The position numbers were made by a program, and so were the translations under genes. The notes beneath the pieces are model-generated. The model was not told the DNA's origin. It saw only the letters and a list, made by a program, of their open reading frames with translations, and did no database searches. Positions 2,674 to 62,951 of a stretch of DNA of 64,000 nucleotides are shown here, one piece after another; positions within the stretch are counted from its first letter, which is position 1, and each line of letters begins with the position of its first letter. Source of the DNA: Moniliella sp. 'wahieum' (lineage: Eukaryota); assembly GCA_003971905.1 (NCBI GenBank), contig RSEE01000062.1:124001-188000 (forward strand), written 5' to 3'.

Positions 2674-3214
2674 GGTGGGATGGCGGGGAAACGGTGGAGC
2701 AATCGAGTCGGCGTGCTTTTTTTTTCTGCCCAGGGCCGGAAAAGATGAGGCGGGGCTGAATCCACTTAGCATCTGCAAACTGCCTGAATTCACCGGGTAT
2801 CGAGCATCGACCATCGATCGATCATCTGCATCATCGATCACCATCATCCATGAATGTGAAACTCAGCAGCCGCTGCTCCGAAACGGCGTTGCACCGACTC
2901 GCTCACTGATGAACAAGCCCAGTCACTAGTCACGCGTCACACGTCACGCGCGTCACGAGGCTGGGCCTCTGAGATCTGACTGCTTCGCGAACGGGGCCTT
3001 AGGCCTTAGGCCTTGCTTCAGCACCGGGCGTGACATCACATGACATAAGCCGCGCCCGTCGCCCCGAGGCAACGTGGAGCCTGGCGGGTGGAGCGTCGCC
3101 AGCACGCTGGAACGGCCGAGGCCGCGCTGGACCGGCAGCCACCTTCTCGCCTGCGTCTCGCCTCCGCCTCCTTCGCTTCTTCCCCCTCGTGCGTGCGCTG
3201 CGTCCCCCTTGGCC

Positions 3215-4881
3215 ATGGTGGTGCTCTCCGTCCATCTGTACGCGCGCCGGCAAGCCCATCCTTGCCCGCCAGTTCCGCGACATGAGCCGCTCCCGGGTCG
3301 AGTTGCTGCTTGCCAGTTTCCCGCGCCTGGTCAGTGCCCATTCCCAGCACACCACCATTGATGCCGACACGGTGCGGTATGTCTACACGCCGCTCGAGGA
3401 TCTCTACCTCGTCCTCATCACCAACCGCACCAGCAACATTCTTCAAGACATCGACACGCTCCACCTGTTTGCCCGCGTGGTCCAAGACATGTGCGCGAAC
3501 GCTGTCACGGTACCTGCCGTCGTCGGAGACTACCCGTATCCCGTCCGTCCCGCAGCGGCAGGGTGGACGAGGCATCGGTTCTTCGTCTGTCCTTTGAGCT
3601 GCTGGGGCGTTTGACGAGATCATTGCCCTTGGCTACCGCGAGTCTGTCGCCCTGCCCCAGATCCAGACCATCCTCGCCATGGAGTCGCACGAAGAGAAGA
3701 TTCAAGAGATGATTGAACGCAACAAGGAAGCGAGGCCAAGGAGGAACTGAAGCGACGAGCCAATGCTCGAGAGCCAACGCCGCGATGCAGCAAGGCGTGG
3801 CATTCCTTCCAGTAACTTTGCTGCGTCCATTGGCGCCTCTGCACCGGGCGGCTTTGCTGGCAACTCGACGGGATCTTTGCCTATGCCCACGGTACATCGC
3901 GACGATCTGCGTGCGCCGGCGGCGGCGCCTCAGGCCAAACCTTTCAAAGGCAAGGGGATGCAGCTGGGTAAAAATCTGTCTCTGCCACAGCTAGCTTTTT
4001 GGGAACCTCGGCTTCTACCCCTACCGAGTCCCCTGTCCCTCCTCCCGCCGTCCCGGTCCCCGGTCCGACCGCTGCCACTGCCACTGCCCCTGCTGCGTCC
4101 AGGACGTCCACGGCAACATTTGACCCCCACATGCTCTGGGCGATCCGGCTGCGCCAGTGGCCCTGCTAGCGCGCGAACGGATTACGCTCGTGGCTGAGCG
4201 GGACGGGTCAGTGCGATCGTTTGAGGTGCGCGGGGATTTGGAGTTGACCGTTCGGGATGCGGACTGGGCCAGGTGCGTGTGACCTTGGCGGCCAACGCGA
4301 GTCCTCTGGCCAGTGCCTTGACCTGGAAAACCCACCCGCACATCGACGCTGCTCGTTGGACGGCGCAGACCGAGTTGGCCCTGCGCGATGCCAACCGCGC
4401 TTTCCCGCTCAACCACCCGCTCGGTGTTTGCGTTGGCGTGTGCTGCGTTGGCCTCGGGATCAGCCGCGGCGGCCAGCGACGTGGTGTGCCACTGGTGATT
4501 TCTTGTTGGCCTGGTCCAGCCGGGCGGAGCCGAGGCCATTGTCGAGTTTACCGCCGCTGCCGAGCACGATGTGGCCATCCACGTCTCGGTCCCGGCAGAG
4601 GCAGAGGTAACGGGGGCCTCGCATGGCGAGGCGCTGCCTGCGCCTGGGGAAGTTGTCTGGCACATTGGTGACCTGTCTCAGGGCGCAACGGGCTCACTCG
4701 AGCTGACTGTACCAGGCGCGGATGCCGAGGACCCAACAGCGTTCCGCACCACCGCCGAGTTCTGGTCGGCTACCACCTTGGCAGGCGTCGAGGCTGTGTC
4801 GGTAACGGCGACCGAATCGGGCGCGCCAGCGCCCTTGCTCTGCAGAGCTTTGTCAGCCCAGACCGATACGTGTTTGGTTAG
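3215..4881 (+). CDS. RET2: Coatomer subunit delta (COPI); frameshifted
   Basis: MVVLS..SICTRAGKPILARQFRDMSRSRVELLLASFPRL...VRYVYTPLEDLYLVLITNRTSNILQDIDTLHLF; MESHEEKIQEMIERNKE; KGKGMQLG; mu-homology segment WKTHPHID...LALRDANRAFPLN. Confidence 0.93.
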
Positions 4882-5525
4882 TTGCAGACCAGCAAAAGAT
4901 CGATTGAGATGCCTGTGTGGCTCGGGTGGGGTGCTAGGAATCGCTCATTAAATGAGAATAGCAAGAGGGGAAGTCAGGGTAGTACATGCGAAAGGGCCTG
5001 TAGCAGAGGTGGGAGCCGGCGGCGTTGAAAGGAGATACTAGTATGTATGGCCTGGGGGGATGTCCTCGGTACAAGGACCGACGGGCGCGGGACAACGTTG
5101 GCGATGAGCCGGTGAGGAGGCCCAGGTGTGGATGGGTTACGCAAGAAAGCCCTGTCTACAGGGGGGAAGCAAGTAAGAATAGAAAGGAGAGCCACTGTCT
5201 GAATTCTGCACTCTGAACTGCCAACATCTCCATGTTGAGGCGGCTGGGGAGGGTGTGTCAAGGGTACTAACCCACGGGTAGGGGTATACCCGCCCCCCCC
5301 TCCTGCAGGCCGCTAGCCGCCGCGACATCCGAACGGGCCGCCCTCAAATGATATTACGCGCTTGGGAAATGCTGCGGCGTATAAATTTTAGGCGGGCACA
5401 AGGGCTCTGTTCTCCGTCCTAGGGTTAACCTTCCGCTCCCTGGCTGGGTTTCGAAGGTCGTTGGGCCAAGGTGGTCGGTCCCCAGCTCCGTTGTCCATCT
5501 ACCGTTACCAAGGCCGGTGTATCCT

Positions 5526-5609
5526 GTGAGTCGGCCTGCTCCTGGGCTCCTTTGTGTGCTGTCCACGGACCAAGGAAGCAAGTGTGCTAACTGGTTCTCC
5601 TCCTCGCAG
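5526..5609 (+). other. Probable 5'-UTR spliceosomal intron of RPL20
   Basis: GTGAGT donor at 5526, GCTAAC branch point ~5586, pyrimidine tract, CAG acceptor at 5607-5609, 8 nt before the ATG at 5618. Confidence 0.7.
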
Positions 5610-5617
5610 AGCTCGCC

Positions 5618-6136
5618 ATGTCCCGTTTCACCGAGTACCTCGTTGTGGGCCGTCACCTGCCGACGGAGAAGGAGCCGACGCCCAAGCTGTACCGCATGCG
5701 CATCTTTGCGCCTAACTCGGTGGTGGCCAAGTCGCGCTTCTGGTACTTCGTCCGTCAGCTGCGGAAGATGAAGAAGTCGACGGGTGAGATTGTGGCGGTG
5801 CACGCAATTGCTGAGGCCAAGCCGCTGAAGGTGAAGAACTTTGGTGTGTGGCTGCGTTACAACTCGCGCTCGGGCACCCACAACATGTACAAGGAGTACC
5901 GTTCCCTCTCGCGCGCCGAGGCTGTGGAGAACATGTACCAGGACATGGCCGCTCGCCACCGTGCTCGCTTTGCCTCGATCCACATTCTCAAGATTGCCGA
6001 GATTGAGAAGGCGGCCGACGTGCGCCGCCCCTACATCAAGCAGCTCATCCAGCCCAACCTCAAGTTCCCGCTGCCCCACCGCAAGTCCTCGTCCAAGGGC
6101 GTGTTTGCCGCCAACCGGCCCAAGACGTTCTACTAA
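5618..6136 (+). CDS. RPL20: 60S ribosomal protein L20 (eL20/L18a)
   Basis: Intact 172-aa [42 protein letters not shown]...[16 protein letters not shown]...KFPLPHR...RPKTFY. Confidence 0.98.
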
Positions 6137-8554
6137 GTATATCGTCCTGGGGCAGGAGCAGCTGGCTTGTTGCAATCCGCTCTTGCCTCCAACGGTTGCT
6201 TGGGGCGTGCACTGGGGTGGCATGTGACACGCCTCGGAGCTCCTGTTGGTCAAAACCTTAGACAGCGCTTTGTTGCCTGATCTACTCTGTGTGGGTGTCG
6301 GCTAGCGTCAAGTGCTAGACGCTCACCTGCTGTCGAGTCCCTTGGCATGTGGGAATTCCATGTGTTCTCGGCCTCAAACCGTCTCGAACTGCTGTAGGCT
6401 GGCATGGCCCGGACCTATAGTAGTAGCAAGTAGTAATAGTAGTTGTAGTAGTAAAGACGGATACTGTGGTCAGTATGGCTTCACCACCGACAGCGCCAGC
6501 GGATTACCGCTGCGGCTTAGCCTCTTCCACGTCCATCCTCTGTTCTCTGTCGAAGTCCAACCACCAAGCTCCGGTCCACCCCAGTCTACACCAGGCTTGG
6601 GCTAGTACTTTGTCTTGGTATCCATCATGCCCTCTCTCTCTCAGCTTCCTCTGGAAACGTTGGCATGACCGTACCACGGCCTGCCGGCAGATGCTGCCGG
6701 GCAAACCGTGAACCATCCTCCGACTTGGACCTACCAGTTGCTTCCCTCGCCCGGCGGTAAGTGATACGCGGTAATGTTTGCACAGGTGAGGCAGATCATT
6801 GTTGTCCTCTCGTCCAAGGAGCGCAAGACAGAAATGATCACGAGAAAAGTAAGGTGAGGACAGGGGCGCGTTCAAAAAAGAAGGGCAATAACCATCAAAA
6901 GCAACACTCTCGGGCTTGGCAGTGGTGGAGGATTGTCCACCCCTCCTGCTTCTGCCGCACTGGGTGGTCAATTACACCGTTGCACTGGTCGAGCTGCACA
7001 TTTTCCCATGCATGTCTTCCCAATAGACTGGTGTGCTCACCACTATCGGCCTCTTTCTCATCTAGAGTACCGTTTCGAACTACTCTCGGTAGTAGCTTGG
7101 ACGGAGGAGACGTCAACCTTCAGTGTCGCATTAACTGTTATATGACTTGAGCACTTGCGGGCTGGCCTCTTTTCCTTGTCCAGGGCGTGAAAGAAAGCTT
7201 GAACGCCCCTGCATGCGGTGCGCGGTGCGCCCCCTTCCTACCTATTCTCGCTCCTATATCCAAACTCCCACGGGTTACACTACTGATTGCTATAGTAGTA
7301 ACCTACCCCCCCCCTTGTCTATCGGTGGGAATTGATCGCCTTTTGTACGCGTAGTACAGAGGGCGCGTACCACGTTTGGCTGAGGGTTGGAAGGGGAAAA
7401 GCGATTATGTGCAAGTAGTACCCCAGCGGCCAAGTGCACAGTAGAAAGAACAGGTGTGGTGCAAATTCCACCCAGACCTGCAGATCGAGGGGCACACCAA
7501 CACTGGTCCTATCTGTCTCACACAACGGAGGGCGAGATGGAGTGTGGCACTTGGTCCGGCTGGGTGTTGGCTGGCTGATGAATGTTGAACAGCAATGCGG
7601 TTGATAAACGTGTGTGCACGTTCAATCGACCAGCCCATATATTTTTGTCTCTCCCTTTTGAAAGAGAAAAAGTCGGGGGCGAGTGGGTATAATGTGCCGA
7701 CGACCACCCTGTTGATTGGACTGGAACACGAGGTAGTGCCATTCACCGCTACTGGCAACAGGTGGTTGTTCCAGCCGAAGAGGGAGGACGGGCTAGGCGC
7801 TAGAGGGCCAGTAGTCTTCCCGTCCAGAAGATGTGTGTGCACAAGACGAAAGCTGAAGCGCCACGAGTGAGGGTGTGCATTCTACCCATGACGCAGAGCC
7901 GGTACCCACACAAGGCTGCCTGTGGTGCGCATGCGGAGAAAAGGGCTGCATGGGCGGGTACAGTGTGCGTGTGCGAGCACCGGCAGGCACCTGCTCGAGC
8001 GGCATTGTGCGTTTCCTAGGAACGAGCAGCCCGCATCGAGCAACTCGTAGCACGTGACACGTACTGTAACGAGGTGCAGGCCATCGCTGCTTCGTCACAC
8101 ATGTCACATGCATCACCCAGTCCAGCCGCGTGGAGGCCTGCGGCAGCACGCATGTCTGCTCTGCGCTGCCGCTGCACTGCCCCGTGCCTGCGAGCTGCTG
8201 CCGCACATGCCGTCGCCCCCAGCAGGGGCAGTGCCGGCAGCAGGGCGCCACACACTGCTGCTGTGTCTCTGCAGCCGCACCACGCTGGCCGTGCGTCCTA
8301 TACGTCGTCCTATGTGTCCTACACGTCCTATACCACTGCAGGCTCTGATTCTCCTCTCCGGCCTCCTCCTCGCCACGCGGCCGAACCGGCGGGGGGATAA
8401 ATACCGCCTCGCCGGCCTCCCATTCCCGCTTCTTTCCCCCACCTCCACTTCTCTCTCTCTCCCTCCACGACGCCGGCCGTCTCCCCTTTCATCCAACGCT
8501 TCTGGCAAGCCCCCATCCCCACGCCCCACATCCCTCCCCCAGCTCTCCAGCCCC

Positions 8555-9618
8555 ATGCACCTCCTCCGCTTCCTCCTGGCCACCGCCGCTGCTGGTTCAG
8601 CCGCCGTGTGGGCCACACCCTCTCCGGGCGTGACGGAGCTTCCCTCGATCCACACCCCTCCCAGATCGCACGGATGGTGCGTCGGCACCACTCGCACCGC
8701 CCCCACCACCACCACACACCACCGCCATCACCGGCACCCCATCCACCACCCAGCTGCTTCAGTATCCCATTCCTCCCCGGCCGCAACACATGCGCACAAC
8801 AGCACGGACCAGAATCACCTTGCTGGTGCCGGCCGCGGGAGTAAATTGACCATGGCCAAGAATGGGCTCAGCTGGGCAGATGGCAAGTGGCTCAATGTTG
8901 ATCTTTTTACCCAGTCCATGGGATGGCTCTACTCGTGGGACGTCAGTCCCACCCAGGGCCAGCCGACGGCGCCTAACTTTGTTCCTGACAACATTCAATT
9001 CTGGCCCATGTTGTGGAGCAACCAACCTGACCGCGTGGCCGCGTGGGAGCAGTATGCTCAACGACCGCGATGCCCAGCAGAATAAGGCCAAGGTGGCAAT
9101 GGCGTTCAATGAGGTGAATCAAGTAGGCCAAGCAGACATGAAGCAAGCAGATGCCTGTGGTGCTTTCCGCCAGTACCTCCTCCCTCTCAAGGAGGATGGG
9201 TGGACGATCATTGGTCCATCGACTAACGGCGCGCCAGATTCCATCTCGTGGATGCAAGAGTTCAAGTCCATGTGCCCCGACGCTTACGAGGCGATTGATG
9301 CACATTCGTTGCACTACTATGGCACGGAGCCGGAGAATGCAATTGCGTATCTCGAGCAGTGGCACAGCACGTTCCCCGAAAAGGACGTGGTGATTACTGA
9401 GATTGGGTGCATGAACTACGGTGGTCAGGCCGCGCCAGACTTGGGCACCGCGTTCCACTTTGTGCAAGGTGTCAACCAATGGGCGCAACAGACCGAGTGG
9501 GTCAAAGGCGTGGCCTTTTGCCCCACTGTTGCAAATCAACATTAACGAAAACTCGCGCTTGGCTACTAGTGCTGGCGCGCCCACACCTCTGTTTGACTTT
9601 TGGGTCAACAACTCGTAA
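8555..9618 (+). CDS. Secreted glycoside hydrolase family 128 (Asl1-like beta-1,3-glucanase); frameshifted
   Basis: Signal peptide MHLLRFLLATAAAGSAAVWA, Thr/His/Pro-rich linker, then GLSW...WLYSWD...FWPMLWS, FNEVNQ, SLHYYG, VVITEIG (the two catalytic-Glu motifs). Confidence 0.85.
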
Positions 9619-10093
9619 CGTTCCAATTGGATCACGAGGGAGAGAACAGATGGCTATGAGCGGTAGCTGGTCTGTTGCTCATCAGCTACTCTGAGAATCC
9701 CACGCATTCGATCCATTCCATTTCATTCCTTTCTCCACCACGCACCCCTTCGATTTGTTTTCTATCAATTTTTTCCACTACCATCTTTTGCATTCCCGTC
9801 CTCCCCTCTCCCCTCGACAATCAACCAGGCTTTCTACCAAACAAGTGTCTCGAAGCAAACCTTCGTGCATTAAGTTCTTATCATACCTAGGTCGTTCCAC
9901 CCTGTGTGTTGGGCAGATCCAAAAAGTCTGCCAGAATTCGTCCAACTGAACTCTTGTCTAGTAGACATACGGATCCCACCACTCCCTCCGACTCATGACC
10001 TGTTTCCATCTCTATTCGCATCCTTCTCTCCACTCCCCTCTCCCATGAGGGAAGACATGCAATTGCATTGCCCACGGCACATCCTGCCGGGAT

Positions 10094-11670
10094 CTAGGAT
10101 ACACATTTGTTTTTAGTTGGCGTGCATTTTGGGCGAAACCATCTCCCATACGTACGGCGCCCCTGACAACAAGTGAGTACAGGGCCAGGACACCGAAGGC
10201 GATATGGGGAGGCTGGTACCACGTTCGCATGAGCAAGTTGATTGCGCCAGTGAGCAGGTTGGCCTAGAAACAAAAAAACAAGGTTAGCAAGCATACAGCA
10301 GGAGCTGTTTACCGTGTTGCACCATTGAGGTCTCGAGGAAGAATAACGTACCAGTAAGAAGGCTGGCATGGCGTGTCGGTTGAGAGCGTCGAGCAGGTCC
10401 GCTGAAACAGCCGGCGGGGCGGCGGGCAAACCGGTTTCCTGGTCCTGCGTACCCACCACGCCCGCCTCCATGGAAGCCTGCGTCGTCGCATACAGTGCCA
10501 AAACCATCGTGTTGTATGCAGCGACCAAGCTGACGTAGCCTGCGTTGGCCAGACGACGACTGACGCCCCATCCTGCTGTAGGGGGGATTTGGGCCGCATA
10601 CGGCGACGGCTCCGCTGTGGTGACAACCCAGAAGGCCAAAGCGTATCCGAACGCCAGTAGGCTCAATCCACGTCGTGGGCCCGGGGAGAACGCGGCCAAA
10701 CCAGCATGCACACCCAAAAGGAAGATGGAGACGTAGCCTACCAACGATACAAGGCCTTCTTTGTTCTGGGTGAGCAAAGGCAGGCCGTCAGCCACCCTGT
10801 TAGGCAAGGCGGCAAGTGCCCATTCCCCCCACCCACGAGGACAGAATGGCCTCGTGTTGCACCCAAGAGGGCGAGGGAGAGCAAGACGATGCTGCGACCC
10901 GAGGGGCGTAGATACGCAGTCACCGTAGCCAACAACGGCACCAGCGCCAGTGTCGCAAAGAAGTTCCAGTGTACCCCGTACTCGCCCATATGCTCGGGTA
11001 GGCCACACCCTTGACTGCCGCCACGCGAACCAGTGCAAGCACAACAAGCGGCCACGTTTTGGAGAGCGTCTTGCGCCACAGTTAGTGTACGCGGGCGAAA
11101 GGGAGGTGAGGCCAGTGGTTTGGTTGTGGATGTAAAGCGGTGAAAGCAAAGGGCGCGCCGAGACCAAGCCCCAGCTAAATACGAACGAACCCACGCCCAG
11201 GTCCATCATACTCATCCCAAAGTTCTCTGTTTTGGCCAAGGAGCGAGGGAAGATGGGAAAGTCAACAGCCAGGATGCAGAGGACGGTCATGAGCATCATA
11301 TGGGCGCGGTAGATGGTGAGGAACCGGTGGGTCGGGCTCGGACAGGAGGAGGAGCGAAGACGAAGACGAAGACAGCCCAAGGTACGTGCACGGTAGAAGA
11401 GCAAAAGCGCACCAAAAGCAAGACAGCGGTCAACAGCCCGGCTTCCTTTGGTTGCGACCACACTGTGCACGCCGCCAAGGGCGGCAGAACCACAGCACGC
11501 CCATTCGCGGCGAGCCGCAGTGGCCAAGGGACAGAACCGTGCTGAGTCTGGCCGGCTTTGAGAAGGACCGCACCAGCCCAGGGGACGAGACTGATGGATA
11601 CGATCTGGAGGAGCGACCCGCCGGTCAGGTTAGTGACGGACGCCTCCTTGGCCTCGCGGTACGTGCTCAT
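10094..11670 (-). CDS. GWT1: GPI-anchored wall transfer protein 1 (inositol acyltransferase, PIG-W); frameshifted, intron ~10264-10350, 3' end approximate
   Basis: MSTYREAKEASVTNLTGGS; FLTIYRAHMMLMTVLCILAVDFPIFPRSLAKTENFGMSMMDLGVGSFVFS; EHMGEYGVHWNFFATL; QNKEGLVSLVGY; VSRRLANAGY; ANLLTGAINL. Confidence 0.93.
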
Positions 11671-12329
11671 CGTCGTCGCGCAAGAAGAAGCAGACACGCA
11701 GTGGCCAAGACGACCTTCAACGTTGAAGTGGGTAGTGACGTGGTGGAGCAGTCCCCCTGAAATGTTTCACGCTGCCGGCATGTGACCCAGGGTTGAATAT
11801 TGAATCGCCATTTTCTTTTCAGCTCTGTAATTATCGGGGCACGGGCCCCTTTAACCCTTCATTCTCTCTCATGTTCGTTTCCTTTATCTCGCCACCACCG
11901 CTTCCCTTGCGTTTTCTCTCACTCGACCTGATTCTTGAGCCAATACCTGCCAGTCGGGATCAGACCCACTTGATCACCGTTTGATCACCCAAGTTGACTG
12001 GTCCTGATTTGTTCTAATAGTAGTAGACCCTGTTTTCCCTCTTTGACTATGCTCCTCTTCCTCTTCCTCCGTGTGATTCAGCTCGCATGTTCTCTTCTTC
12101 TCCGAGGCATATATACCTCGCCCTCTTTCCATTCGATGAATGTCATCCTCATCCTGTCCCCCATCTCCCTCTCCTGTTAGCCAAGGTGATTGCTTCGTGG
12201 AGACTGGGCGCCACAGTAGCCGTGTCCATTGCATCACCGCAGCCATTCCGTCTCAAGTCCTCGAGCGTATATTACGCTACCACCTTTTTGCCTCGCTTCG
12301 TGCCCTCCCTCGCACCCCTTGTATTTGAG

Positions 12330-13109: not shown

Positions 13110-13729
13110 ATATCACAGTGTACCCGGAAACACCGCATCCTACGTGAGCGGCATATGACCGTCCGTCTCGCTGCCGTCGAATGGCTCCCAGACTCCTTCA
13201 ATCCAACCCCTGTTGAATGTACAGCCAGGCCACTGGGCAATGTAAATTAAGTGGAGCTCTTGAACTCGTGTCCCTCTTTCCTTTTCTTGGCCCTAATGGA
13301 TGTCCTCCTTTCATTGTTCCGGCTTGTGACATGTGACAATGTGACATCCATCACCGTGGCAGCGGTATGTAGTTCTTGAAGCTTCAAGATGCCCCAGCAC
13401 CAGCAACGTTCGTCCGAACTTCCCCTGTTCATGAATGTTGTACCACCGCCAGCGCCCAGGGTTATGCGATTCAGGCCATGTGGGCATTGCAGTGGTCACT
13501 CTCATTTCCATGCTTGCCGAAGCTCTTCCGTAACCCGCATCCATAGCGGCAAACACAGCTCACCCCCCAGCGGAGGCCGAAGTCAAGTGGCTCATTCAAA
13601 ACACAGACTATAGTCCCGTTAGACCAACAAAACCGTCAGCAGGCAAAGTGTATCTTCCCAGCCGCGGAGGATATTGTGACCCACATGTAACACGGAGCTA
13701 CGAAAATAGTGGGACACGGTTCAGTACGT

Positions 13730-14135
13730 TCAACGTTCAAGGGAGAGCAACTCCTTCAGTCGCCCATCAGAAGCGAGCACTTGCAAGTCGGAGTTGCCGC
13801 CCACATGCTTGCCATTGATAAAGATGTTGGGCACGGTGCGCTGGCCCGTCTTGGAAGCCAAATAGGTCTGGATCTCAGCCCCCTTCGATCCCAGTTGGTC
13901 CAGCTCCAACACACCGAGCGGGGAGGGCGCCACGTGAACTTGTTGAGCAAGCTAATAGGGGGTTAGCCCGGTCACAAGCCAATCAATATATACGCGCGTT
14001 GTGTGCCGACTGGAGTGAGTGAAATGCGGAGGGGGAGGACGCACGTTTTGCTGGCGGTACAGTAGGGACAGAATGACTTGGAAAACACAAATACCGGTTC
14101 TGGGCAATCAGCTGCTCCACTTGTTTTGCCGCCAT
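13730..14135 (-). CDS. Dithiol glutaredoxin (CPYC); intron ~13952-14044; frameshifted
   Basis: [57 protein letters not shown]. Confidence 0.92.
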
Positions 14136-20395: not shown

Positions 20396-20759
20396 CGTCG
20401 CAAGGACCGACGGAAGCACTGTTGATGGCCCAACGAGCGTTCGAGTGCGTTCGTGCCGTTGCACCCCTGTCCCGCCTTTGCGCTCGCCCGCATCCGAGAT
20501 GGAAATCACTTCCCCGGCTAGTGCGCCCCTTTAGGATTCCCAGGTGGAGGTGCACAGGATGGCATGACATGTCTTGGTTTATCTATGGTCTCTTTCTCTT
20601 TTTCTTTCTTTTTCTCCTTCTCTCCTCGGTTGACTCCGCTTGCCTTCGCTCGGCTGCCCCCCCCCACCCCCCCACCTAGCCTCTTTCTTTACTTCTTTTC
20701 TGATCGTTTGTTTCACTCTCTGGACTGCTGTTCTTACTATTTACCCTATCGTACCCTTG

Positions 20760-20865
20760 CCTTGTTTTTTTCTTATCTCTCTCTCTCTTCCCCTCTCTCT
20801 CTTACTCTCTTTCTTTCTTCTTTCTTTCTTTCTCTCTCTCTATCTCATCCTTTCTCTTTATCTTC
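20760..20865 (+). repeat. CT-rich low-complexity tract
   Basis: Imperfect (CT)n/(CTTT)n run. Confidence 0.7.
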
Positions 20866-46558: not shown

Positions 46559-46640
46559 TCTCCGATAGTTTAGTGGCTATGACACGTCCCTGTCATGATT
46601 GATGTACGGACGAGACCCGGGTTCGATTCCCGGTCGAGAG
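46559..46640 (+). tRNA. tRNA-Asp(GTC) with 11-nt intron (46596-46606)
   Basis: TCTCCGA-TAGTTTAGTGG D-arm; anticodon stem CGTCC/GGACG with loop CTGTCA^C; T-arm CCGGG-TTCGATT-CCCGG; T-run downstream. The 3' acceptor strand lacks one G. Confidence 0.9.
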
Positions 46641-47346
46641 TCTTCTTTTGCCTTGCTCTTCTCTTCTGGAGACGTTCGCTTTTTGCTTTTTGCTTGTGAG
46701 ATCAAGCTACGTTCAAGCTTCAAACAACCTTCAGGGCCTTCTTCAAAAAGAGCACATTTGCTTAGCAGGTTACCGGTTAGCGCCATCAAGAGTAAGTGTT
46801 CGGACCTGGTGTTGTCAATCACGAGTTTGAACTTTAACGCAGAGGTCATCTCGAGTTCGTCATACCATCCCATCAGTAGCACTACTAAGAGCACAGCTTA
46901 CCAGAGGGCGCATATGCTTTTTGCTGGCGTGATTGCAATCTCATCCTCCACATGCAGAAGGGTCTTGCGCGTTGTCTGCGTATCTCCTTCCCTGCTACCG
47001 TCTGTAGGCAAAAAAGGTGTCCAGACAGCCCTGGTCATATGCTCAATCGTGGCATCTCTCTGGAGGCTTACGCTGTTTTTCTGTAAAAAAACAGCGAGGC
47101 TCTAGTGGACAACTAAGGCAGTTCTGTCACCACGGAAGGAATCAGTTGAGCATATGCAGTGGTAGAAAGAGGACTAAGAATACATGCATGGGTAGGGTAA
47201 GGGTAGGTCGTGTAGCGAAAAGGGAAATGAAGGGGGGAAATATACACATCGCCAACATAGAGAGGCGAACACCATGGCCCAGGGCACCAGGCCTTCCTTC
47301 CATGGGCAAACGTTCTCCCAAAGCACAGAACGCGATGAAAAACAAA

Positions 47347-51120: not shown

Positions 51121-52263
51121 TTAGTCTTTCCGGCTCAAGTCGCCAGCGGGAAGGATCATGATGGATTTTCGGCCGTGACGATGCCTGTGGCGGCCGTGTA
51201 AAAAGCACAGGCGGCACACAAAGATGCCAAATGCCGCCTGCCGTGCCGAGGTGGGCATTGCCAGAAAAGTAGTGGCAAAACACATCAAAAACGTAACCGT
51301 CAGCGAGGTAAAGACGCAGACCAGCGCTACCGACGCTCGCAACGTCGCCAGCATCAGAATAAACGTCACGATAAACCATGTGGCGAGGAAAATGCCAATA
51401 CTCGAATCCAGTTCGGCGGGCGACAGTGCCGCCCCAATACCAAACCATGGAATGAAAATCATTGCAAAGCTCATCCAGAAGCTTCCGTACTGTATGTAGA
51501 GAGGCACGGGAAAAGAAAAGAAACCAGTCAGGGGATGCACATATGCAGAAGGAACAGTGGTGGGGAAGAGACGTACCATGCAAAACGCCGTGGCGCCAAA
51601 GGTGTTGCCTGCCAAGGAGAGGGAGAAAAAACAGGGAAAAAGGTGAGTGATTCTATCCTATTCTACTCTGACGGATGCACATACCCGATGCAAACTCCCA
51701 AAGACCGGCAGCAAACTGGGCCAAGCCACCCGTGGCCAAGGCAGGGGCAACAATGAAGTTGGCGTGTTCAATGCCACGCGCACCAACGTTAAAGAGCGAC
51801 AGGATAAAGGTGGTGCTGGCAAAGCCCATTAGTCCCAGAGGTGCTGGGTTGGCAAACTTGCTGTGGTATCATATTAGGCCGAGGCAAGAATGCAGGCAGG
51901 AATCATCAGTCAGATCGCGCTCTGTCTGGAACTGGGACGGATAAAGCAAAGCCCGGGGGCAGAGCAAACCATAATATACGTACCGATGGTATACGGGAAA
52001 CGCCGGCTGGGACGTATCAACGGCATGGCCTCCGGCTGGGATGAAAAGGAAGAGAGGCAACTAAGGGGTCAGGCCACGCACGCCTACCAGCAAGCGGAGA
52101 GGCCGAGGGAGGGGAGACAAGACGCACGAGTAAGGCTGCGCAGAAGGGGAGGGAAGACGGAGGAGCGGGTGGCGGGGGCTTCCTCTACATCGCTGGTGGG
52201 GTTGCTGGTGGTGTGCAGGTTGATTGATCTGCCTTGTTCATCTTTGTGCTGGCTGTTGCTCAT
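51121..52263 (-). CDS. GPR1/FUN34/YaaH (Ady2/Ato) acetate/ammonia transporter; several introns
   Basis: GGHAVDTSQPAFPVYHR; KFANPAPLGLMGFASTTFILSLFN; GGLAQFAAGLWEF; GNTFGATAF; YGSFWMSFA; IGIFLATWFIVTF. Confidence 0.92.
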
Positions 52264-53884
52264 GGGGGGCAGGAAGGGGGGCGGTGGGGAGGACGGAGAA
52301 GGTGGTGGATGTGGGGCGGGTGCTGCACAGACACGGGGGTGGAAAATATATACAGAAAGCGGGGGAGGGGATGCGGATCGGGATGGGTGGGGGGCAGTGT
52401 CGTCTGTGGCTGGCGTGAGGCGAGAGGCATGCATAATGGGGTGTGCGCTGGAGCGAGGAGGGATGATCGATGGCGTTTGAGACTGGCATGCAGCATGCAA
52501 GGGCCAGCACAGGCACGTGCGTGCGGTGTGAGGCAGGCCCCCGCACACCCAGTCTCGGCAGTAGTCAGAGGGCGACCAGAGTAGGGGTGCGCCCTGCCGC
52601 AGAAGAAACATCCACACCTCTTCTGCAGCCAGTGCTCGCCTGGCCTTGCCTGGGCCTGGTCTCTGTCGCTTGCCCCACGCCAGCACCGATGGCAGGCAGC
52701 TGGGCCTGAGGCCTCAGCCTGAGGCCTGATGCCTGGCCCTGCCCGGTCCTACCAGACTCTGCCCCACCCCCAGCCGCACGCCTCACTGGCCCCGTGCCGC
52801 CCCCTTCCCTGCCCCAGCGCGCCAGGCACACACTCCCCCCCCCCCAAGCCGGCGGCTTTAGTGCGCCAAATCGCACGGCGTGGCGTCTGGCACTGCGCCA
52901 GTGTCCTGCACCGCGTGGGGTTACGCGCGTTAAGAGCGCCCAGCACCACAGCGCACCCAACCACCCTGTGCCTTACTCAGTACTCATTGCTCTGAATGCT
53001 TGGACGTCTCACCTCAACCCCCACAAGCACACCGAGTGCCCCACACTGCTGCCCCCCCATTCTGTCCGGCCCCAACACTACATATGTCTCGTATCATATA
53101 CAAGGAGGACCACCGGGCCTACGCCCCGGTCAGCTGGGGCCGAAGCCCCAGCTGCCGTTCCCCTTCACCACCGTAGCCACCGTTCCCCGCTGGAGAGGAA
53201 CATAATATCACCGATGCATGCGGGTGGGCAGGAACGTGGCACCGGTCGCTGATGTAAAAGCGTGCAGATCGGGGGATTCGCAATGTTATCTGTTGGCTAC
53301 TAAGTCTCAGTGGAAATGGTTCCTCGCTCGGATGTCAACCACGTTCCTCCTGTCCACACGCGCTTCCTAGGGTACGGGACCGGATGGCGAGAACCGGAGG
53401 GTCCTGATATCTAGAGATCAATGTCTTTCTCCACCCCATTCATTCCCCCCCCGCTGACCATGGCCACAGGACATGGATCGTCGCCTGGTGCCTGGGCGTC
53501 TCCTCCCTCGATCGAATGCCAAGCCACCGCGCACACGCACACTGGCATCGAAATCATTCATCCAAGCTTATTGAGCACACACGACACTCAGCTACTGACC
53601 ATGCCATGCATCATGCATCATGCATCATGCATCACCCCAACCTTTTACTGCCTCACTCGCACCGCAGCAACACCTTCTCCCCTGCCGTAGAACGTCAGGC
53701 CTAGGCATCTTTTTGTTAGGTAGTCCATCCTCCCCTCTCCCGCTTGACTACTCTGTACTCAGCTGAGCACTCTGACTTCTTTCCCCTTCGCCCTCCGCTT
53801 CCTTTTTTTCTTTCTTTCCCTTTCCTTTTCCTTTCCTCTTCACAGACAGATTCACCACTTTGGCCGCCACACCAACCGACTACC

Positions 53885-54312: not shown

Positions 54313-55251
54313 AACTCTTTTTCCCTGATCTGATGAACCGCGCTGCGACGGGCGTGTGGTGGAGCGTGGGTGGAATGTGGGGAGCAAGTGGGTGATAGGG
54401 GGGGTAGCAAGTCGGGAAGAACAGAGGGGGAAAGGGAGGGCGGGGCGAGGAGGGAAGAGGAAAGGGGGCAAGGAGGCTAGATCAGGAAAAGGGAAAGGGA
54501 AAGAACAGGGAAGGGTCACGTGGTACACAAAGCAAAGCGATGGCGTACAAAGCATGGCACACACAAAATGGCACACAAAGGATGGCACACACAAAGGGGG
54601 GGGGGGCAAGATAAAAGAATGCAATGCCACGCGATGCGGCTGGGCCCGAGGTTGGGACCAAAGAGGGGACCAGGGAGGGCAGGAGAGGGGAGATGGACAG
54701 GGATGGACAGGGGTAAGGGGGGAAGCAACAGGGAGAGGGATGAGGGGCAGAAGAGGGGCGAGGGAGAGGGGCAGAAGAGGGGGAGAAGAGGGGCAGAAGA
54801 GGGGACAGGGAGAGGCGTCCGAACGAGCAACGAAACGAAACGACACGAAAGGGGTACTCACGTCGGCCACATGCAAAGCAAAGCAAAGCAAAGCAAAGCC
54901 CCGACCCGGACCAAAACGGGACCAAGAAACTAAAAAACACACCAGAAACCGAAACCCAATAGGCAAGAAGCACAGCGGAACACCCAGGAGAACGTAGGCC
55001 AAAGGGGGAGGGAGAGGGGGAGGAGTGGCCATGAGATAATTGCGCAAGCGACGACCGACACCAACACTTGTCCTCCTCGTCCGGGGGGCGCGTGGGGGGG
55101 GGGGGGGGGGGGCAACAGACAATTAATCGTACGCACCCCTCCCTCCCTTTCCCATTCGTTGTCTTGCGCTGTTGCTCTGGTCCCAGCGGTACCCCGCCGC
55201 GTCGCACGCACTCGTCGTACGTTTACTTTTACTGTTACTTTCTTCTTTCCC

Positions 55252-58200
55252 TTACTCTTCGTCGCCATGGGTGGAGGGTAATGCACTCGAACCCCGAAAA
55301 GGGATTGTTCGAGTCGGGTGTGAAGCGCGCATCGCCATCTGTGCCGGGTAACGAATCGCCAAGTGAGAAGGGAGGGGCTTTTCCCCTTGGGCGCCTGACG
55401 AACCCGCAGACCCGCCCGGTCCTACTCCTACCCCTACCCCCATTCCCAGTCCTAAGCTCGACCCGGACCCGAGGGCGGGGGCAGAAGCTAGCCCCGACCG
55501 GCCGACGTGCCCGACCCCACGGAACCAGGCATGGTATGCGGATGCGCCATGCGCGCTTGCGCTTGTGCTTCCAGCGCTGCAATCACCTCGGCTGGTGTGG
55601 GGGGGATAATGGGCGGTTGTCGGTTACGCAGTAACCCCCAGTTGATCGATGCGAACCATCGGTGTTCCTTGACTTCCGACGCACCCGTCACCGAACCCAG
55701 CCGACGCGTCTCATCTTTGATCAGGAGTTTCTTGATTAAACTTTTACCTGATTGGGAGAGTGCCGGGCTTACGTGGCCATGGCTCGTGCCGGATCCCACG
55801 CCAGAGCCCACATGGTCCGGGAAGATCACGTCGCGCTTGAGGACATTGGAAAAAGTCCCGTTGCGCGAAGATCCTTTGAATGGTGTCGTCGCATACACCA
55901 TTTCGTAAATCAAGATTCCTAGTGTCCACCAGTCCACGGCCGAGGTGTGGCCACACCCCTTGATCACCTCGGGCGCAATGTACTCCTCCGTACCGACAAA
56001 CGAGTTGGTACGTAAATCCCCAATGCACGAACGTGTATCCACAATTGGCACACTGTTCGGTGTAGCTTGCCGGATCACCGCAGGCTCGCCCCCACGCGTA
56101 CCGGCTCGCGCGGAAAGATCAAAGTCCGAAAGCATCACGTGGCCCGATTCGTGCAGCAGAATGTTTTCGGGCTTGAGGTCGCGGTAGATAAAGCCCATTA
56201 AGTGCAGGTACTCCAGTGCAGCAGTTACTTCTGCCGCGTAGAAAACGCGCATCGTCCTCGGCTAAACATTTGCCCGGAAGCGATTGCAGCGCACGGAAAA
56301 ATTCCCCTCCGACACAGTACTCCATACAGAGGTACAGGTACTCTTCCGATTGGAAACTGTGGTACAGCGTCACGATAAAGGGTGGTTGAGCGACGCGAGG
56401 ATCTCTTGCTCGGCCAAAACTCGCTTGATCTTGTTCCGCTTGATCATCTCCTTCTTGCTCAACACTGCAGCGCAAAATTCAACCATAGATGGAGATGGAA
56501 GATGAAGATGGAGATGGAAAGCAGAAGCATAAGAAGAGGGGTGAGTTAGCTCAACTCAATCAGTATACCAACCGGGGAACGGGAGGGACAACGCACCTTT
56601 CATCGCATACAACTTTTCCGACTTCTTCTCGCGCACGAGGTAAACCTTACCCACATCGCCTTTACCAAGCAACTTGATCTTATTGAACGACCCGGGGCCC
56701 ACCTCCGTCGCAGACACCTTGATTGACGAAGCCGAGTACGTCCGACGCCCTACGCCAGTTGGAAGCGCACTGGCCGGACGCGCTAGGCCCAACCCAGCAA
56801 CCGAGGTCGAACTCCCACCTGCAACACCTGACGAATGCACCCCATTCGGCCCTGATAACGGTAAGTACCCACCGACGACGCACGTGGATCTTCCCCCCCA
56901 ATGCGACGGCGACCGAGGAGTTGACCCCGTGCGGATCTGGCAAAATGCACAAGAGACAATCAGGTCAGATGCGGAGCCGGACACAGAGAGAGCAAGTGAC
57001 CAAGTAAACTAGTGAACTAGGACCCGGCGACAGGACACGCAGTAGCCACGTCGGTACACGTAACAGGGACAAGGACAAGGGCAAGGAACGAACCAAGAGA
57101 ACCTTTGCGCTTCGGACGGGATTTGAACGGATCAGTTTATCTTTAAACGCACGGTTGCGCCACGGACGCCAGCGTAGCACTAAACCCTCCCGACCGTTTC
57201 GTCTCGCCTGACCCGGACGCCGAGACAGTCGTCAATGGAGAACCGGCAGTCGCGGGTCTTGTCCCTGGACTCGCCGTCGCCGTCGCAGTTGCACTCGCCG
57301 TACCACCCGGTGAAGACCGAGGCGGGTGCGTGCCACCGTGGACTAAGTTGGCAAAGGATGAAATGGAGTGTTGCGCTTCAATGGCGGTGGGGCTGCACCT
57401 GCACCGGAATGGGTACCCGTGCGCGAACCGGATCGGGACACGCTGCGCAAAAACCCATTACCACTCTTCTTGTGCGGCTCAAAGTCTTGCGAACTGAAAC
57501 TCAGCGCATTCCCATTCATCGGCACGTTCGAGCCCGTAAACGTAGGCCAGCGTTGCAGTTCCGCACCGGTAGTGCTGTTGTCTGACGATCCCGGGGACCG
57601 CGCATCGGCATGCCAACTCGGTTGAGAGAGAGATTGGAACGGGCGCAACGGGCGGAAGCGAAGGGTGGGCAGGCGAGGTGGGAGATACAGACGGAGACAC
57701 GGGTCCCAGAACTTCAACTGTATCGTTATCCTCTCCATTGCTGGTATGGGTGAACTGTTCGCCGTGGCCACCGCGCTCGCCACGGGGCGGGGGAGAGCGG
57801 CCGTGCGCCTGCGCCTGTGGGTGGGACGGGGACGGGGACGGGGATGGGGACTGGGACATGGAAAGTGCAGCATTAAATATGCGCAGTTGCTCGTCGTGCT
57901 CGCTGGCTGGGACGGGCAAGTGAGGTGCCGAAGGAGACCGGAAGAGCGCGTGGGCGTCAGGCATGGACGTGGGCCGGCGCAGAGCGGTGCAGGACTAGCG
58001 GGGCTGGGCAGTAAAGTCCGATGGGGCCGGTTGGTCGGCGGAAGAGGGTGGGCTAGGCCGGTCCGAGAGCGTGCCAGAGCTAGAGCCGGCCGAGGAAGCT
58101 AGTGTCGAAGGAGGGGCCGAGGGGGGAAGAACTGCGACGCCCGTGTGGATCACGTGCGGCACGGGCACGGCCACGGGCGGGTTGGTTGGATGTCGCAGTG

Positions 58201-58419
58201 GCGGTTGGCTGGGTCAGCATCTGGGGCGGGATGGCGAGATGGGCGGGCGGAGGCACGCGGCGCGCAGAAACGGCAGCAGCAGGCGCGCGACGGGCCAGGC
58301 CCAGGACGGAACGCCATTTCTTGCTTGTGGGCGGCGCCGAGGTGGGCGGCGGGGAGGTGGGGAAGAGGGGAAGGACGAGGCGGTGGCGGGGACGGATACG
58401 GCGAGTGGGTACCCATCAT
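55252..58419 (-). CDS. AGC Ser/Thr kinase, Nrc-2/Fpk1/Kin82 family; intron ~56466-56596; start approximate; frameshifted
   Basis: [11 protein letters not shown]...[84 protein letters not shown]-terminal [16 protein letters not shown]. Confidence 0.93.
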
Positions 58420-61400
58420 GGTGGGGGAGGGGGAGGAGCAGGAGCAGGAGGAGGTGCAGAGGAGGTGCAGAGGAGGTGCAGAGGAGGAGGAGGAGGGGCA
58501 AGTGCAAGTGCACGCACAGGAGACAGCGCAGAGGGAGGCGGTGGAGGAGGGGACGGGTGGGGCGGGGCGGGGCAAAGGGGTGGAAAGGAGGGCTATGGCG
58601 ACATGCAAGTGTGGCTGTCGGCGGGACGCAGCAGGAGCGAGCTGGGGCGTGCTGCGGTGTGCTGCGGTGCTCGGGGGGCTGGGGGGCTGGGGGGGCTGCT
58701 GCGCGAGCAGTGACCATCACCCCCCGCGCTGCTGCCCCCGTGCTGCCCGCTGCACTGCTGCACTGCCGCCCTGCGCCCTGTTGCCCGCGCCACCGCGCAG
58801 CGGCGCAGTGGGTGGTCGCACACGGCCGCTGGCGCCAGGCGGGTGGTCATGCAGGCGGGGGGGCAGTGCGTGCCGCGCCAGCACGCTCGGCCGACCCACA
58901 CTGCCCGCGGGCGAGCGGGCGCAGCGGGAGCTAGTGGGCGTTGCCACTCGCCTGCCCTGTCCCATGCCCCATGTCACATGTCACGCTGACTACTAGCTAC
59001 GCAACTCAGCGCTGAGTTCCCAGCTGGATGCGAGTGTGTGGGATGGGTGGTCGAGACGATGGGTGATCGGGGGGCCACACCGCCCACAGGCCAGCTGCCG
59101 CGGTTTGACAATGTGACATGCATGACACATGTGTGCCACCCCCGCGCCCCTCCGCCCACACCCACCACCCTCCATCACCCGTCCCGCCCAACTCAGACGC
59201 CGACTCGAGACCAGACCAAACCACACACAACGCTGGTGCGCCTATCACACCATCTGTTTCCGCCCGTGGTCCACATGCTGTTCACCTTGGACCATCGGAC
59301 TCTAACCGCGAGATGGGGACCACCGACAATCGGCTGATGGACCCCATATGCATCCTCGGGTGCGTTCTGTATTGACACTGGCAAAGAGAGGAGATATTAG
59401 GATTGCAGAAGAGATGGCTTTTTGTCTTCCGATAGCACATCATTGATGGTGTGCATATGGCTCACAAGAGAACCAACAGAAGCTCAGGCTCACCAGAAGA
59501 AGGCTATAGGCTTACCGCTCAGCGCTGAGTCCCCCTTGAACCTGCCACAGCACACTCAGCTCAGGCTGAGTCGGGATCGGTCCCCCGTACGCCCGCACGC
59601 CCCGCTTGAAGCTTGAAGCTTGGAGGTTGAAGCGTTCTCACGTGAGTTCATGCATCCTCAAGTCCATTATGACATCTTTTTCTCCGGGTCCCACCACTTG
59701 GACGAGGTGGTGGGATCTCCCGTCTCCTTTCCACGTCTGTCTTGGGTCACAATCCGCCCATCCACCTCGCGAGGGTGGACCGGGGGCGGGGAGAAGGATT
59801 AGCGCTGAGCCTTGTACCATCTGTCCTTGTATCGTGGGTCTTGTACCCTCCCTGGAGCTTCGGTAGTCGCTAGTCAGTACTCAGTAGTCGCATGCTCCAC
59901 TGTCACATGCATGTCACATGCATACCCGTCCGGCGTCACCGCGTCACCCGTCACCCGTCCCAACAGACAACGGCAACAGGTCACCGGTAAGATCTAAGAT
60001 CTAAGATGGGACCAACTGATTGGTCATCGATCGCTCATCGATCACTATCAATATCTATCTCAGTATCACAAGAGGCGCTAGTGATTAAGATTCGACGCTT
60101 CGAGGATCGGTGATCGAGCGGATCGATGATGTGGATGAGGCTTGCAGCTTAGACGCGCTACGAGCAAGGGACGGGCCGGCAGGCGGGCACTAGGGCACAC
60201 TTGGGCACACTTGGGCGCGAGGCGCGCGGCCGGTGGAGCGTGAAAGCTTGCGCATCGAAATGAATATTGAAGCAGTTAAAATTGCAACATTGTAGTGAAG
60301 CTCTTTTGAAGCTTGAATGGGGTGCAGGGACGCAGCGCATGGAATCGTTCCCTCTACCCCCATCGACCGTCTGTACTCAGGACATCAGCACCATTAGTAC
60401 TGGGACTCAGTACAGCCGTACAACCGCGCGCTTTCCCTATGCTCTGTTCCATTCGCCCGCTCACGTTGATCCATCGAGGTATCCTATTAAGTACTCTGCA
60501 ATGAGAGAGATTGAGGCGATCGCCGGCGACGCCTGTGTTGTGGTTTTTGTTCTTGGCCGCGCAGCAATAGGTTAGGGCAACAGGAGTTAACTGGGAAAAT
60601 GATTTTACGCTCTCGCATACGATAGATTGAACTTTCCTTCCCCCTTGCGCCCTCTCCGTCTCCACCTCCTTCGTCATCTTCATCTTCATCTTCATCTCTA
60701 TCGTACTTCGTCTCTCCTTTCTCCTTATGTGTCTCCTTCTTTTCCCCTTCCAGTGTGCTGGAAGACTCGTAGCCCTCACTGCTTCTTTCTATTTTTTGCC
60801 TTGATGGATGGCACCTCACTATATCCATCTAGTTCTGCTCTTCATGGAAGGCGCCTCGTTCATGGGGATACACGCAGCGTATATATCTGCCTCTCTTCGG
60901 AGACCTATATCCACCTACCCTCTTCAAGTACCTCACCTCGTCCTTGCCAGTGAATCAGCCTCCCCAGCTCCAGTTTGGAACCCGTTTTCATCATAGCCAC
61001 TTGATCATGCCGCGCTTACGATGCAGGATCGCTGCTTTCACCGACAAGGTATGGGTTCCTTCTCGTGGTCGAACTAACAACCCCGCCCCCTGGTTTTCCC
61101 GATCCATCTCCCCATCTCCCCATCCCTCGACCCATCTCCCGACCCATCTCCCCTCCCGCATTTACATCTACCGCTACTGACCAGAGCGAGGGCGGCGAAG
61201 GATTTGTTACTGCATGCGCCAGAGCGTGGACTGCGAGTCGACGGCGTGGAACTTGGGCGGGGCTCGGATCGGTTGGACGGCGGAGCGGAGGGACAAGGAC
61301 GCACCGAGCACCCAGAACCCAAGGGCAAAACGAGGGTCCAGGGGAGAAAAGGGAAACGGCGGGGAAGGGTAGAGAAAACGAGAAAGAGAAAGAGAGGAAG

Positions 61401-62951
61401 ACAAAGGGAAAGAGCAAGAGGGGGGTGGTACGAAAGGAAATAAGAAATAAGAAATCAAAGGTCAGATAACGGAGTGCCTGGTCAGCTAGCTGGGGTGGAA
61501 AGAGGGGTGAGGTAGGAGGTAGGGGGAGGGAGGCGAAGGCTGAAGGCTCAAGCGGGCACACGTCCAAGCACAAGCACAGCACAAGCACAAGCACGAGCAC
61601 GAGCACGAGCGCAACTGCCGGCCGGCCCGCCTGCCGGAACAAGAAACGTACCCGTTGTCCTCGATACGTGTTTGTCAAGCTGCGATCGCGGCTCATCATC
61701 ATGTCGATCCAGTGTCATGCTTGATCCGGGCGTTCTGGAAAACGAACGGACGAACAAACGAAAGAAAAGATAAATGGACCAAAGGGAAAACGACAAAAGG
61801 AAAAGGACAGAAGCCAGACATAGCAAGAGAAACGAAAGCAGCATAGGAGGGACAAAACGAGTTAACATGACCGGTCCCGAACCCATCGCATAGGCTTTCT
61901 TTGTTTCTTTGTTTCTTTGCTTTTCTCTCCTCTCCCTTTTTGGGTGGAGGGGGGAGGGGACGTACCTTGCCCTCGTTGGCAAAACGGGATCCTGGTACTG
62001 CGTTGCCCCCAGAGACCATAGAAGCCAAGAATGATGCCACAGGGTAACACGCGCGTCCCAGGGAACCGGCATGGTGCGGACAGCAAACCGGAGGCTGGGT
62101 CGTGGCGGGTCGACACGTTCGTCCACCCGACCACCCCCGACTTGCCTGCCTCGACGGGCGACAGCGACCAGTAACTAATAAAGCGGTCCGTCGTGGTGCG
62201 TTGGTACATGATCGATGATCGATGATCATCGATCGGGCAGCCAGGATCGAGATTACTAACGCCGCGCAATCGGTTGTACGCGCTGAACCTTCAGTTGAAG
62301 CGTGAAATATTGAACTTCAACTCTGTTTCGATTTTCATTCTGCTGCAAGTGGGACCGGATCTCCTCAGCCAATTCCCCTGCTTCCCTCAACGGCGTTGGC
62401 GCTACCAAGCAACACACGCCGCATCAACGGGTCGGTTTAGGCCTTGGGAGCAGGGGTTCTTTGTCCCAGCCATAAGAGCTTAAGCTCTTTCAATGATATG
62501 GTTAGCGACATAGAGATTTACTACTTGACATTTGCAACGTGCACAACTTGAGAAGCTTGTAGCTCAAAGGGATTCAATCAACTGGGGTTATATTTCTTGG
62601 GAGATCGAATGATTGGCCATTCGATTAGCCCAGCATCATGAATCATGATGCGATTGGGATCATGGAAACGAACTCCGTTCCGAAAGGAACCTCCCTTTAT
62701 TTCGTCCACCCTGAAAGGACCATGAGGGTTGGCAGCCAGCAGAACAAGAAGAAGATGTATGTTTTGTGAAACAGAAACAGAAAACAGGGGCTGAGGGTGG
62801 GTGGAGGGAAGAGTAAGAAAGAGAAGAGTGCCAGCGAGCACCCCATGGTCGTTAAGCTAGCTAGCTCATTGCTCCGGGTAGTAAAGCAAAAAAGAACCAC
62901 GTATACCCCAGGCATCATATGTGATGCATCACAGGTATTCCGCCTCGGCAG

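Follow-up and report, generated by a model that had tools for sequence, protein, structure and literature searches.

Seven-base-pair units joining a T-N-A triplet to a variable palindromic tetramer in the non-coding DNA of Moniliella sp. 'wahieum'

Short repeated palindromes are known from several genomes. In cyanobacteria, the heptamer repeats named STRR form intergenic arrays and HIP1 is a highly iterated short palindrome, while yeast mitochondria harbor mobile G+C clusters, small inserts of palindromic sequence that are flanked by a duplicated triplet and are also found as tandem arrays. All of these belong to other organisms or genomes and are fixed in sequence; those of mitochondria are also far longer than the units considered here. 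To our knowledge, none of them joins a fixed triplet to a free palindrome. In this work, we describe such a combination in a 64,000-bp stretch of DNA of Moniliella sp. 'wahieum' (contig RSEE01000062.1, positions 124,001 to 188,000; hereafter the window). The DNA is nuclear, from a basidiomycete fungus; its G+C content is about 58%, and its genes have short introns. The basic unit consists of a T-N-A triplet (TNA, N being any base), a self-complementary tetramer and a second TNA, and it is written below as TNA-pal4-TNA.

Closer likenesses can be drawn with other described systems. The microsatellites and short tandem repeats of fungal promoters are made up, like the arrays in the window, of under 2 to about 4 head-to-tail copies that lie in non-coding DNA and decay by point changes. 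Footprints of the Tc1/mariner type (duplication, element tips, duplication) also place a direct repeat around a short palindromic filler of fixed length, and in the hairpin footprints of hAT, Transib and V(D)J recombination, the P nucleotides, variable palindromes arise from the sequence flanking the break. Finally, families of E-box-like sites (CANNTG) have fixed outer positions and an inner core that is palindromic but variable, as in the TNA units. In a search limited to open-access articles and bioRxiv, we found no description of a TNA-palindrome heptad pattern, and the only matches to its 10-mers were primers. The pattern is thus apparently undescribed so far, as an earlier note on this DNA had also stated.

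The pattern is real and far above chance. TNA-pal4-TNA occurs 90 times in the whole window (74-79 loci), against 7.45 ± 2.74 in 100 dinucleotide shuffles with a maximum of 15, which bears out the excess of palindromic tetramers proposed in the earlier note. The same shuffles place the non-palindromic form, TNA-N4-TNA, near expectation (127 vs. 113 ± 11). Since the total with any spacer is nevertheless raised (217 vs. 120 expected), TNA pairs must have been newly created and not just converted. Among the 16 XNZ flank types, TNA alone is enriched (z = 25.8 over 30 shuffles; runner-up 2.9), and when TNA-to-TNA distances from 3 to 15 are compared, palindromic spacers are in excess at 7 only (90 vs. 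7.0), plus the harmonic at 14 (8 vs. 0.2). Segments free of open reading frames (ORFs), totaling 16,002 bp, contain 52 occurrences, with 2.8 (order 1) to 5.7 (order 4) expected under Markov models; an order-5 null, which is overfitted, expects 14.1.

What is conserved is the symmetry, together with T and A at fixed places, rather than the identity of the tetramer. The latter is even more variable than was first thought: 15 of the 16 palindromic tetramers are in use instead of 13, the additions being TTAA (at 32956) and TATA (at 45290), with TCGA the commonest (15) and AATT never found. After collapsing strands, the units comprise 35 distinct 10-mers, some of them recurrent at many unrelated loci, such as TCATCGATCA, which was found 12 times. 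The 14 sites cited in the earlier note all read as described except for one detail, at 23624-23644, where the GTAC units are present (two TGA-GTAC-T.A, 11 bp apart) but do not form a 7-bp chain.

Units are copied, N included, with a strict 7-bp period, dyad-related fixed T and A and a free self-complementary tetramer. Of the 90 occurrences, 69 have the same base at both Ns, 10 have complementary bases and 11 have some other combination, with 30.4 identical and 30.2 complementary expected. Between neighboring loci at most 200 bp apart, N is the same in six pairs and complementary in six, and a regional strand bias is thereby ruled out as the cause of the identity. Such agreement within the unit, without correlation among neighbors, indicates that the triplet was copied locally, and it makes a generating step with copying, already suspected from the first reading, a requirement. 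Because the Ns are identical and not complementary, the dyad centered on the tetramer is broken at N and the 10-mer is no true palindrome; the earlier picture of a dyad axis every 3.5 bp was inexact in this respect. Pairs of TGA with TGA and of TCA with TCA peak at lag 7 (48 and 60 vs. about 13-18) and again at its harmonics, 14 and 21, and no such peak exists for TGA with TCA.

The heptad can be read in an alternative register, as a 6-bp palindrome A-XY-Y'X'-T plus one free base N. Hexamer palindromes of the A....T class number 293 (166 expected), and no other class of hexamer palindromes is enriched. Dyad-symmetric units make up 48 of the 117 exact period-7 tandem arrays, against 12% by chance, and 43 of these 48 are of the TNA type according to the tally from our array-length table. 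No excess of dyad-symmetric units was seen at periods 5, 6, 8, 9 and 11, and non-symmetric heptamer arrays are no more frequent than arrays of period 8 or 9. The same lack of excess was found for even palindromes of 8 and 10 bp and for odd palindromes centered on ANT, CNG or GNC. Among TNA-centered odd palindromes (11-mers), 33 of 41 are of the form pal4-TNA-pal4; those of arm length 5 with non-palindromic arms number eight, which is about chance. As enrichment is restricted to palindromes with palindromic arms, plain fold-back copying is not their source, and we ruled it out as a general origin.

Most arrays are short. Exact lengths of the TNA type fall between 10 and 13 bp in 92 of 114 cases, with a steep drop at 14 and a longest array of 30 bp, and 70 of the 79 loci consist of a single unit. 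Arrays of at least 14 bp start in any phase and are not bounded by TNA. In the exact 12-bp arrays, the TNA falls inside the repeated part, with two full TNAs kept, in 18 of 22, against 9.4 expected under random phase, and the triplet is therefore the better-preserved part of short arrays. Outside the 10-mer, the match to the periodic consensus runs through about 0.65, 0.62, 0.48 and 0.41 and is at background by the eighth base; the filler, in turn, agrees with the outer flanks over two positions in 60-68%. There are 32 chains of three TNAs at 7-bp steps, of which 21 have one palindromic spacer only, 8 have the same palindrome twice and 3 have two different palindromes. In ORF-free DNA, the excess over shuffles amounts to 36 perfect, 55 one-off and 21 ± 12 two-off copies.

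The units are depleted from coding DNA and have a near-even density outside it. Stop-to-stop ORFs of at least 150 amino acids occupy 67% of the window, yet they hold only 24 of the 90 occurrences, and a single occurrence lies in the ORFs supported by Pfam (8,686 bp), in agreement with the earlier impression that the chains are largely absent from coding sequence. The same note saw them in nearly every intergenic interval. This goes too far, given that 16 of the 27 ORF-free segments of at least 100 bp have a locus and 11 are empty. The overstatement arises only through the short intervals, many of which lack a locus by chance: the loci fit a single even density over these segments (chi-square p = 0.09; 9.3 empty segments expected). 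An 8.7-kb region without any unit, at 3008-11717, which takes in the intergenic DNA around the genes for the ribosomal protein, the hydrolase and GWT1, is also compatible with even density.

Evidence linking the units to promoters is mixed. Using rough gene blocks, obtained by self-trained ORF scoring and Pfam matches and thus approximate, we estimated 5.5 loci per kb in divergent gaps (18 loci, p = 0.0013), as against 2.3 in tandem and 1.1 in convergent ones (3 loci); with the same blocks, position inside intervals between same-strand genes is uniform (mean 0.52, Kolmogorov-Smirnov p = 0.27, n = 39). Codon usage in sliding windows gave an unusable coding map, and a splice-signal scan, which returned 59 candidate introns, was too noisy and was left unused. 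TATA-like sites stand at no fixed distance from the units. The top over-represented hexamers in ORF-free DNA (ATCGAT, AGTACT, AACGTT, AAGCTT and ATGCAT) come from the TNA-palindrome family. Independently of it, GTAGTA, CTACTA and ACTACT are 3- to 4-fold over-represented in the same DNA.

We tentatively regard a lineage-specific, copy-based mutational process acting at T-N-A as the most likely source of the arrays. Such a process would add DNA in 7-bp steps, duplicating the TNA and leaving a self-complementary tetramer between the copies; ordinary slippage would then extend some arrays, and these would persist anywhere outside coding sequence. Depletion from coding DNA would be expected because a 7-bp insertion shifts the frame and because TGA or TAA at 7-bp steps stops successive frames. 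The agent may be a sequence-specific, two-fold symmetric DNA-cutting or DNA-handling activity at T-N-A. We lean, with some hesitation, toward a mutational rather than a selected origin because N is copied, TNA pairs have been created on balance, the tetramer is almost free and the spread through non-coding DNA is even.

A number of points weigh against this choice. From no known repair or transposition chemistry could we derive a product with TNA, an arbitrary palindromic tetramer and the same TNA again. Slippage, either generic or hairpin-assisted, does not predict the specificity observed, and it leaves unexplained why periods 5, 6, 8, 9 and 11 and the ANT-, CNG- and GNC-centered forms have no excess. 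A 7-bp tandem duplication should start at 14 bp, and most exact arrays (92 of 114) are of 10-13 bp. Moreover, at a neutral steady state decayed copies should be more numerous than they are, the excess being of 36 perfect, 55 one-off and only 21 ± 12 two-off copies. The greater density in divergent (5.5 per kb) than in convergent gaps (1.1), which, like the test of position, rests on rough gene blocks, fits function as well, and so does the recurrence of identical 10-mers (TCATCGATCA, 12 times).

A strong competing reading, which we hold at nearly the same low confidence, is that the units of 10-13 bp are sites of a two-fold symmetric protein, or of a family of dimeric factors with shared outer T/A contacts and differing inner tetramers. 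They would then be general promoter or chromatin-organizing elements, with arrays born by slippage and kept by selection. The dyad-related T and A span about 10 bp, a typical size for a dimer site, but one reader alone cannot enforce a palindrome whose sequence is arbitrary, and a family of paralogues would need about 15 specificities. One ordinary sequence-specific transcription factor is ruled out by the 35 distinct 10-mers, which have no single consensus; together with the 15 tetramers, they uphold the earlier inference that a single factor of this kind would not produce the pattern. The E-box families differ in this regard, since the TNA units use about 15 cores, repeat N directly and have an obligatory spacing of 1 nt between hexamers. 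That this spacing is always exactly 1 nt is not predicted by selection for multiple sites. A symmetric reader would also leave the identity of the two Ns unexplained and should rather favor complementary Ns, which are seen in only 10 of 90. The functional reading is kept alive by how few copies have two or more defects, by the recurrence of particular 10-mers at many unrelated loci, with the family also yielding the top hexamers of ORF-free DNA, and by the higher density in divergent gaps (5.5 per kb, against 2.3 in tandem and 1.1 in convergent ones, by the rough gene blocks). On the other hand, loci within tandem intervals favor no particular position, ORF-free segments share an even density, N has no polarity relative to neighboring loci and some promoters lack units altogether, such as the one of the gene for the ribosomal protein (5591-6133).

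Generic microsatellites prone to form hairpins are an unlikely source. In this case, the hairpins of self-complementary units would promote slippage or escape from mismatch repair, and no sequence-specific enzyme would be needed. The head-to-tail structure, with exact or near-exact copies as in ordinary microsatellites, and the beginning of arrays of at least 14 bp in any phase are in line with this idea. However, the independence from unit symmetry and length that characterizes ordinary microsatellites was not observed: the excess is confined to period 7 and TNA, that is, to a 6-bp A....T palindrome plus one base, unlike in fungal microsatellites. Units can fold into a stem of 5 bp closed by a TNA loop, and 33 of the 41 TNA-centered 11-mers have the form pal4-TNA-pal4; nonetheless, 70 of the 79 loci are single-unit and hence without a hairpin, most objects have fewer than two full units, again unlike fungal microsatellites, and arrays remain short, with no expansion. 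We folded eight regions. The predicted hairpins of seven repeat loci range from -0.8 to -7.8 kcal/mol, six of them with z from +0.4 to -0.9. Only one array (z -2.25) and a 22-bp palindrome at 40668-40689 (-11.3 kcal/mol, z -3.4) stand out, and among all examples folded, the latter alone has a hairpin that is clearly stable. The tiny hairpins with a TNA loop envisaged in the earlier note have therefore lost ground, as seven of the eight folded examples are no better or only marginally better than shuffles.

Excision footprints of TNA-targeting transposons of the PIF/Harbinger type (PHIS), also suggested in that note, are highly improbable. They would leave the target duplication on both sides and two bases from each transposon end, and the direct TNA repeat, N included (69 of 90), with its fixed increment of 3+4 bp, does resemble a canonical footprint. 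Moreover, a PHIS group with the target C|TNA|G, NuwaII, has been reported, also from two basidiomycetes (PMC4482050). PHIS terminal repeats are reported to begin with GG, or with A or G (PMC4482050), whereas the 15 fillers in the window start with any base (T 25, G 27, A 20 and C 18 of 90) and thus do not fit such conserved ends. The correlation of the filler with the outer flanks (60-68% for two positions) is unexpected of transposon-derived bases, long arrays are not TNA-bounded, and more than one locus per kb would demand very many excisions. PIF-type elements are reported to excise precisely, and mPing with matching duplications was never seen leaving both of them (PMC4561436). Nor did the 64-kb window contain a candidate source: we found no TNA-flanked inverted-repeat element, except for seven 8-bp candidates at chance level, no transposase Pfam domain among the 123 ORFs of at least 150 amino acids and no mobile element in the repeat search.

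Other footprints are no better matched. In contrast to those of the Tc1/mariner type, the filler here is almost unrestricted and correlated with the flanks, and no elements were found in the window. Many loci can be read, as in hairpin footprints, as a 5-mer, the reverse complement of its last 2 nt and the same 5-mer, but the palindromic bases come from the side away from TNA and never from the TNA side (no TNAXY-N'A-TNAXY), and only repeats containing TNA have palindromic filler. The products that hairpin opening of a TNA duplication should yield, which the earlier note had invoked, are absent as a group, with one case of TNA-TN'N'A-TNA and three of TNA-(TN' or N'A)-TNA.

A sequencing or assembly artefact, a caveat raised in the earlier note for which we found no evidence, is scarcely credible, considering that the pattern is confined to non-coding DNA, with 35 distinct 10-mers, graded decay and normal sequence between intact genes, and that we know of no basecalling error that creates 7-bp symmetric insertions. 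With footprints, hairpins, generic slippage and a single factor failing, what is left is a copy-based process at T-N-A, which we favor with low confidence, or selection for a symmetric reader.

In a divergent intergenic gap, a cluster at 2923-3014 combines TCA-CTAG-TCA-CGCG-TCA, with two palindromes, TGA-GATC-TGA and (GGCCTTA) x2.9. Single units (TGACATGTGA, TGAAGCTTCA and TCAACGTTCA) lie at 13327-13739, followed at 14309-14332 by four TCAs at 7-bp steps with varying spacers (TCA-TCGA-TCA-TCGG-TCA-TGCA-TCA). The dense cluster at 16551-16760 comprises (CATGTCA) x2.3, TGA-CTAG-TGA-CCGG-TGA, (GATCGAT) x2.3, TCAGCGCTTA and TCA-TGCA-TTA-TGCA-TCA. A long ORF-poor interval 5' of the aspartyl protease gene (23426-26115) has 11 loci, among them (ACGTTAA) x2.6 at 24368-24385 and (GCTTGAA) at 25065-25080. 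At 31907-31930, the central spacer of TGA-GATC-TGA-GAAC-TGA-GATC-TGA is one mismatch off a palindrome, and at 36131-36153 (TCGATCA) x3.3 is exact. The interval 5' of the Stealth-domain gene (39563-41147) has eight loci, including (AACGTTG) and, at 39905-39926, (GCTTGAA) x3.1; (GCCTTAG) x2.4 follows at 41131-41147. The perfect 22-bp palindrome at 40668-40689, TCACATGTCACGTGACATGTGA, has an E-box-like CACGTG core with ACATGT on both sides.

Five further loci occupy the gap between two plus-strand genes at 42816-43690. The region 49847-50595 contains (CCTTAGG) x2.7, TCATCGATCA, TAAACGTTAA and TGAGGCCTGA, and TGA-GGCC-TCA-GCC-TGA-GGCC-TGA is found at 52707-52729. The longest array, (CATGCAT) x4.3, is exact and spans 30 bp (53605-53634). 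Of the 10 loci in a divergent interval at 58970-60316, one is (GCTTGAA) x2.7 (59604-59622) and another TCA-CCGG-TAA-GATC-TAA-GATC-TAA (59981-60004); (ATGATCG) x2.9, also exact, lies at 62208-62227. At 2929-2957 and 59901-59960 we observed irregular TCA/GTCAC chains, with GTCACGC-GTCACAC-GTCACGCGC-GTCACG, TGTCACATGCA x2.1, which is a symmetric array of 11-bp period, and (CGTCACC) x2.6. In these two places, the TCA/TGA punctuation is broader than the strict 7-bp palindromic form.

Pfam matches on stop-to-stop ORFs identified, on the plus strand, the ribosomal protein L18A/L20 (5591-6133), a Glyco_hydro_cc hydrolase (8850-9542) and the Stealth-domain protein (41138-42700), and on the minus strand GWT1 (10097-11766), the aspartyl protease (21877-22828), PHAF1 (28109-29444), a GST (30049-30675), a Gpr1/Fun34/YaaH protein (51124-51657) and a protein kinase (55491-56261). 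The best named relatives are only 33% (GWT1) and 68% (kinase) identical; all are fungal and most are from Basidiomycota, to which the organism is thereby assigned. Rfam and ARAGORN agree on an 85-nt tRNA-Asp (GTC) gene on the plus strand at 46558-46642; two TNA-pal4-TNA units (46713 and 46770) lie shortly 3' of it. This tRNA is the sole Rfam match in the whole window, and none covers the TNA-palindrome units.

Other repeated sequences were also noted. TATATA occurs 17 times against 1.3 expected, several times inside long ORFs, and could be a processing, intron or core-promoter signal; TATATAC recurs at 12110, 13987, 23219, 26250, 30126, 31414, 49092 and 52347. At 26620-27123, a 40-nt unit is present in five diverged copies and a 54-nt unit in three, with spacings of 74-179 bp; they overlap a weak ORF on the minus strand (26680-27141), possibly a repeat-containing gene. 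Runs of G or C resembling homopolymers, 14-33 nt long, lie at 32293-32306, 38581-38599, 41258-41290 and 55094-55112. Long CT-rich tracts are present at 20589-20867, 39195-39244, 53796-53841 and 60634-60740, several of them shortly 5' of likely start codons on the same strand, and may mark 5' leader regions.

The pattern may, rather speculatively, represent a genome-wide and sequence-independent "symmetry grammar", in which a two-fold symmetric enzyme or DNA-handling complex of this fungal lineage, specific for T-N-A, writes or reads 7-bp units in open non-coding DNA, each unit combining the duplicated triplet with a self-complementary tetramer. If so, a genome would carry tens of thousands of such marks, which would constitute a new mutational signature or chromatin element outside any known transposon family. 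Should a specific activity write the units, they would preserve a natural record of a new chemistry of DNA breakage, repair or insertion with a defined 3-bp target. Their density here, which exceeds one locus per kb, would also make them a major contributor to the variation of promoters in the lineage. If proteins read them instead, intergenic DNA would be marked by symmetry and not by sequence, in a way that motif finders based on position-weight matrices would miss.

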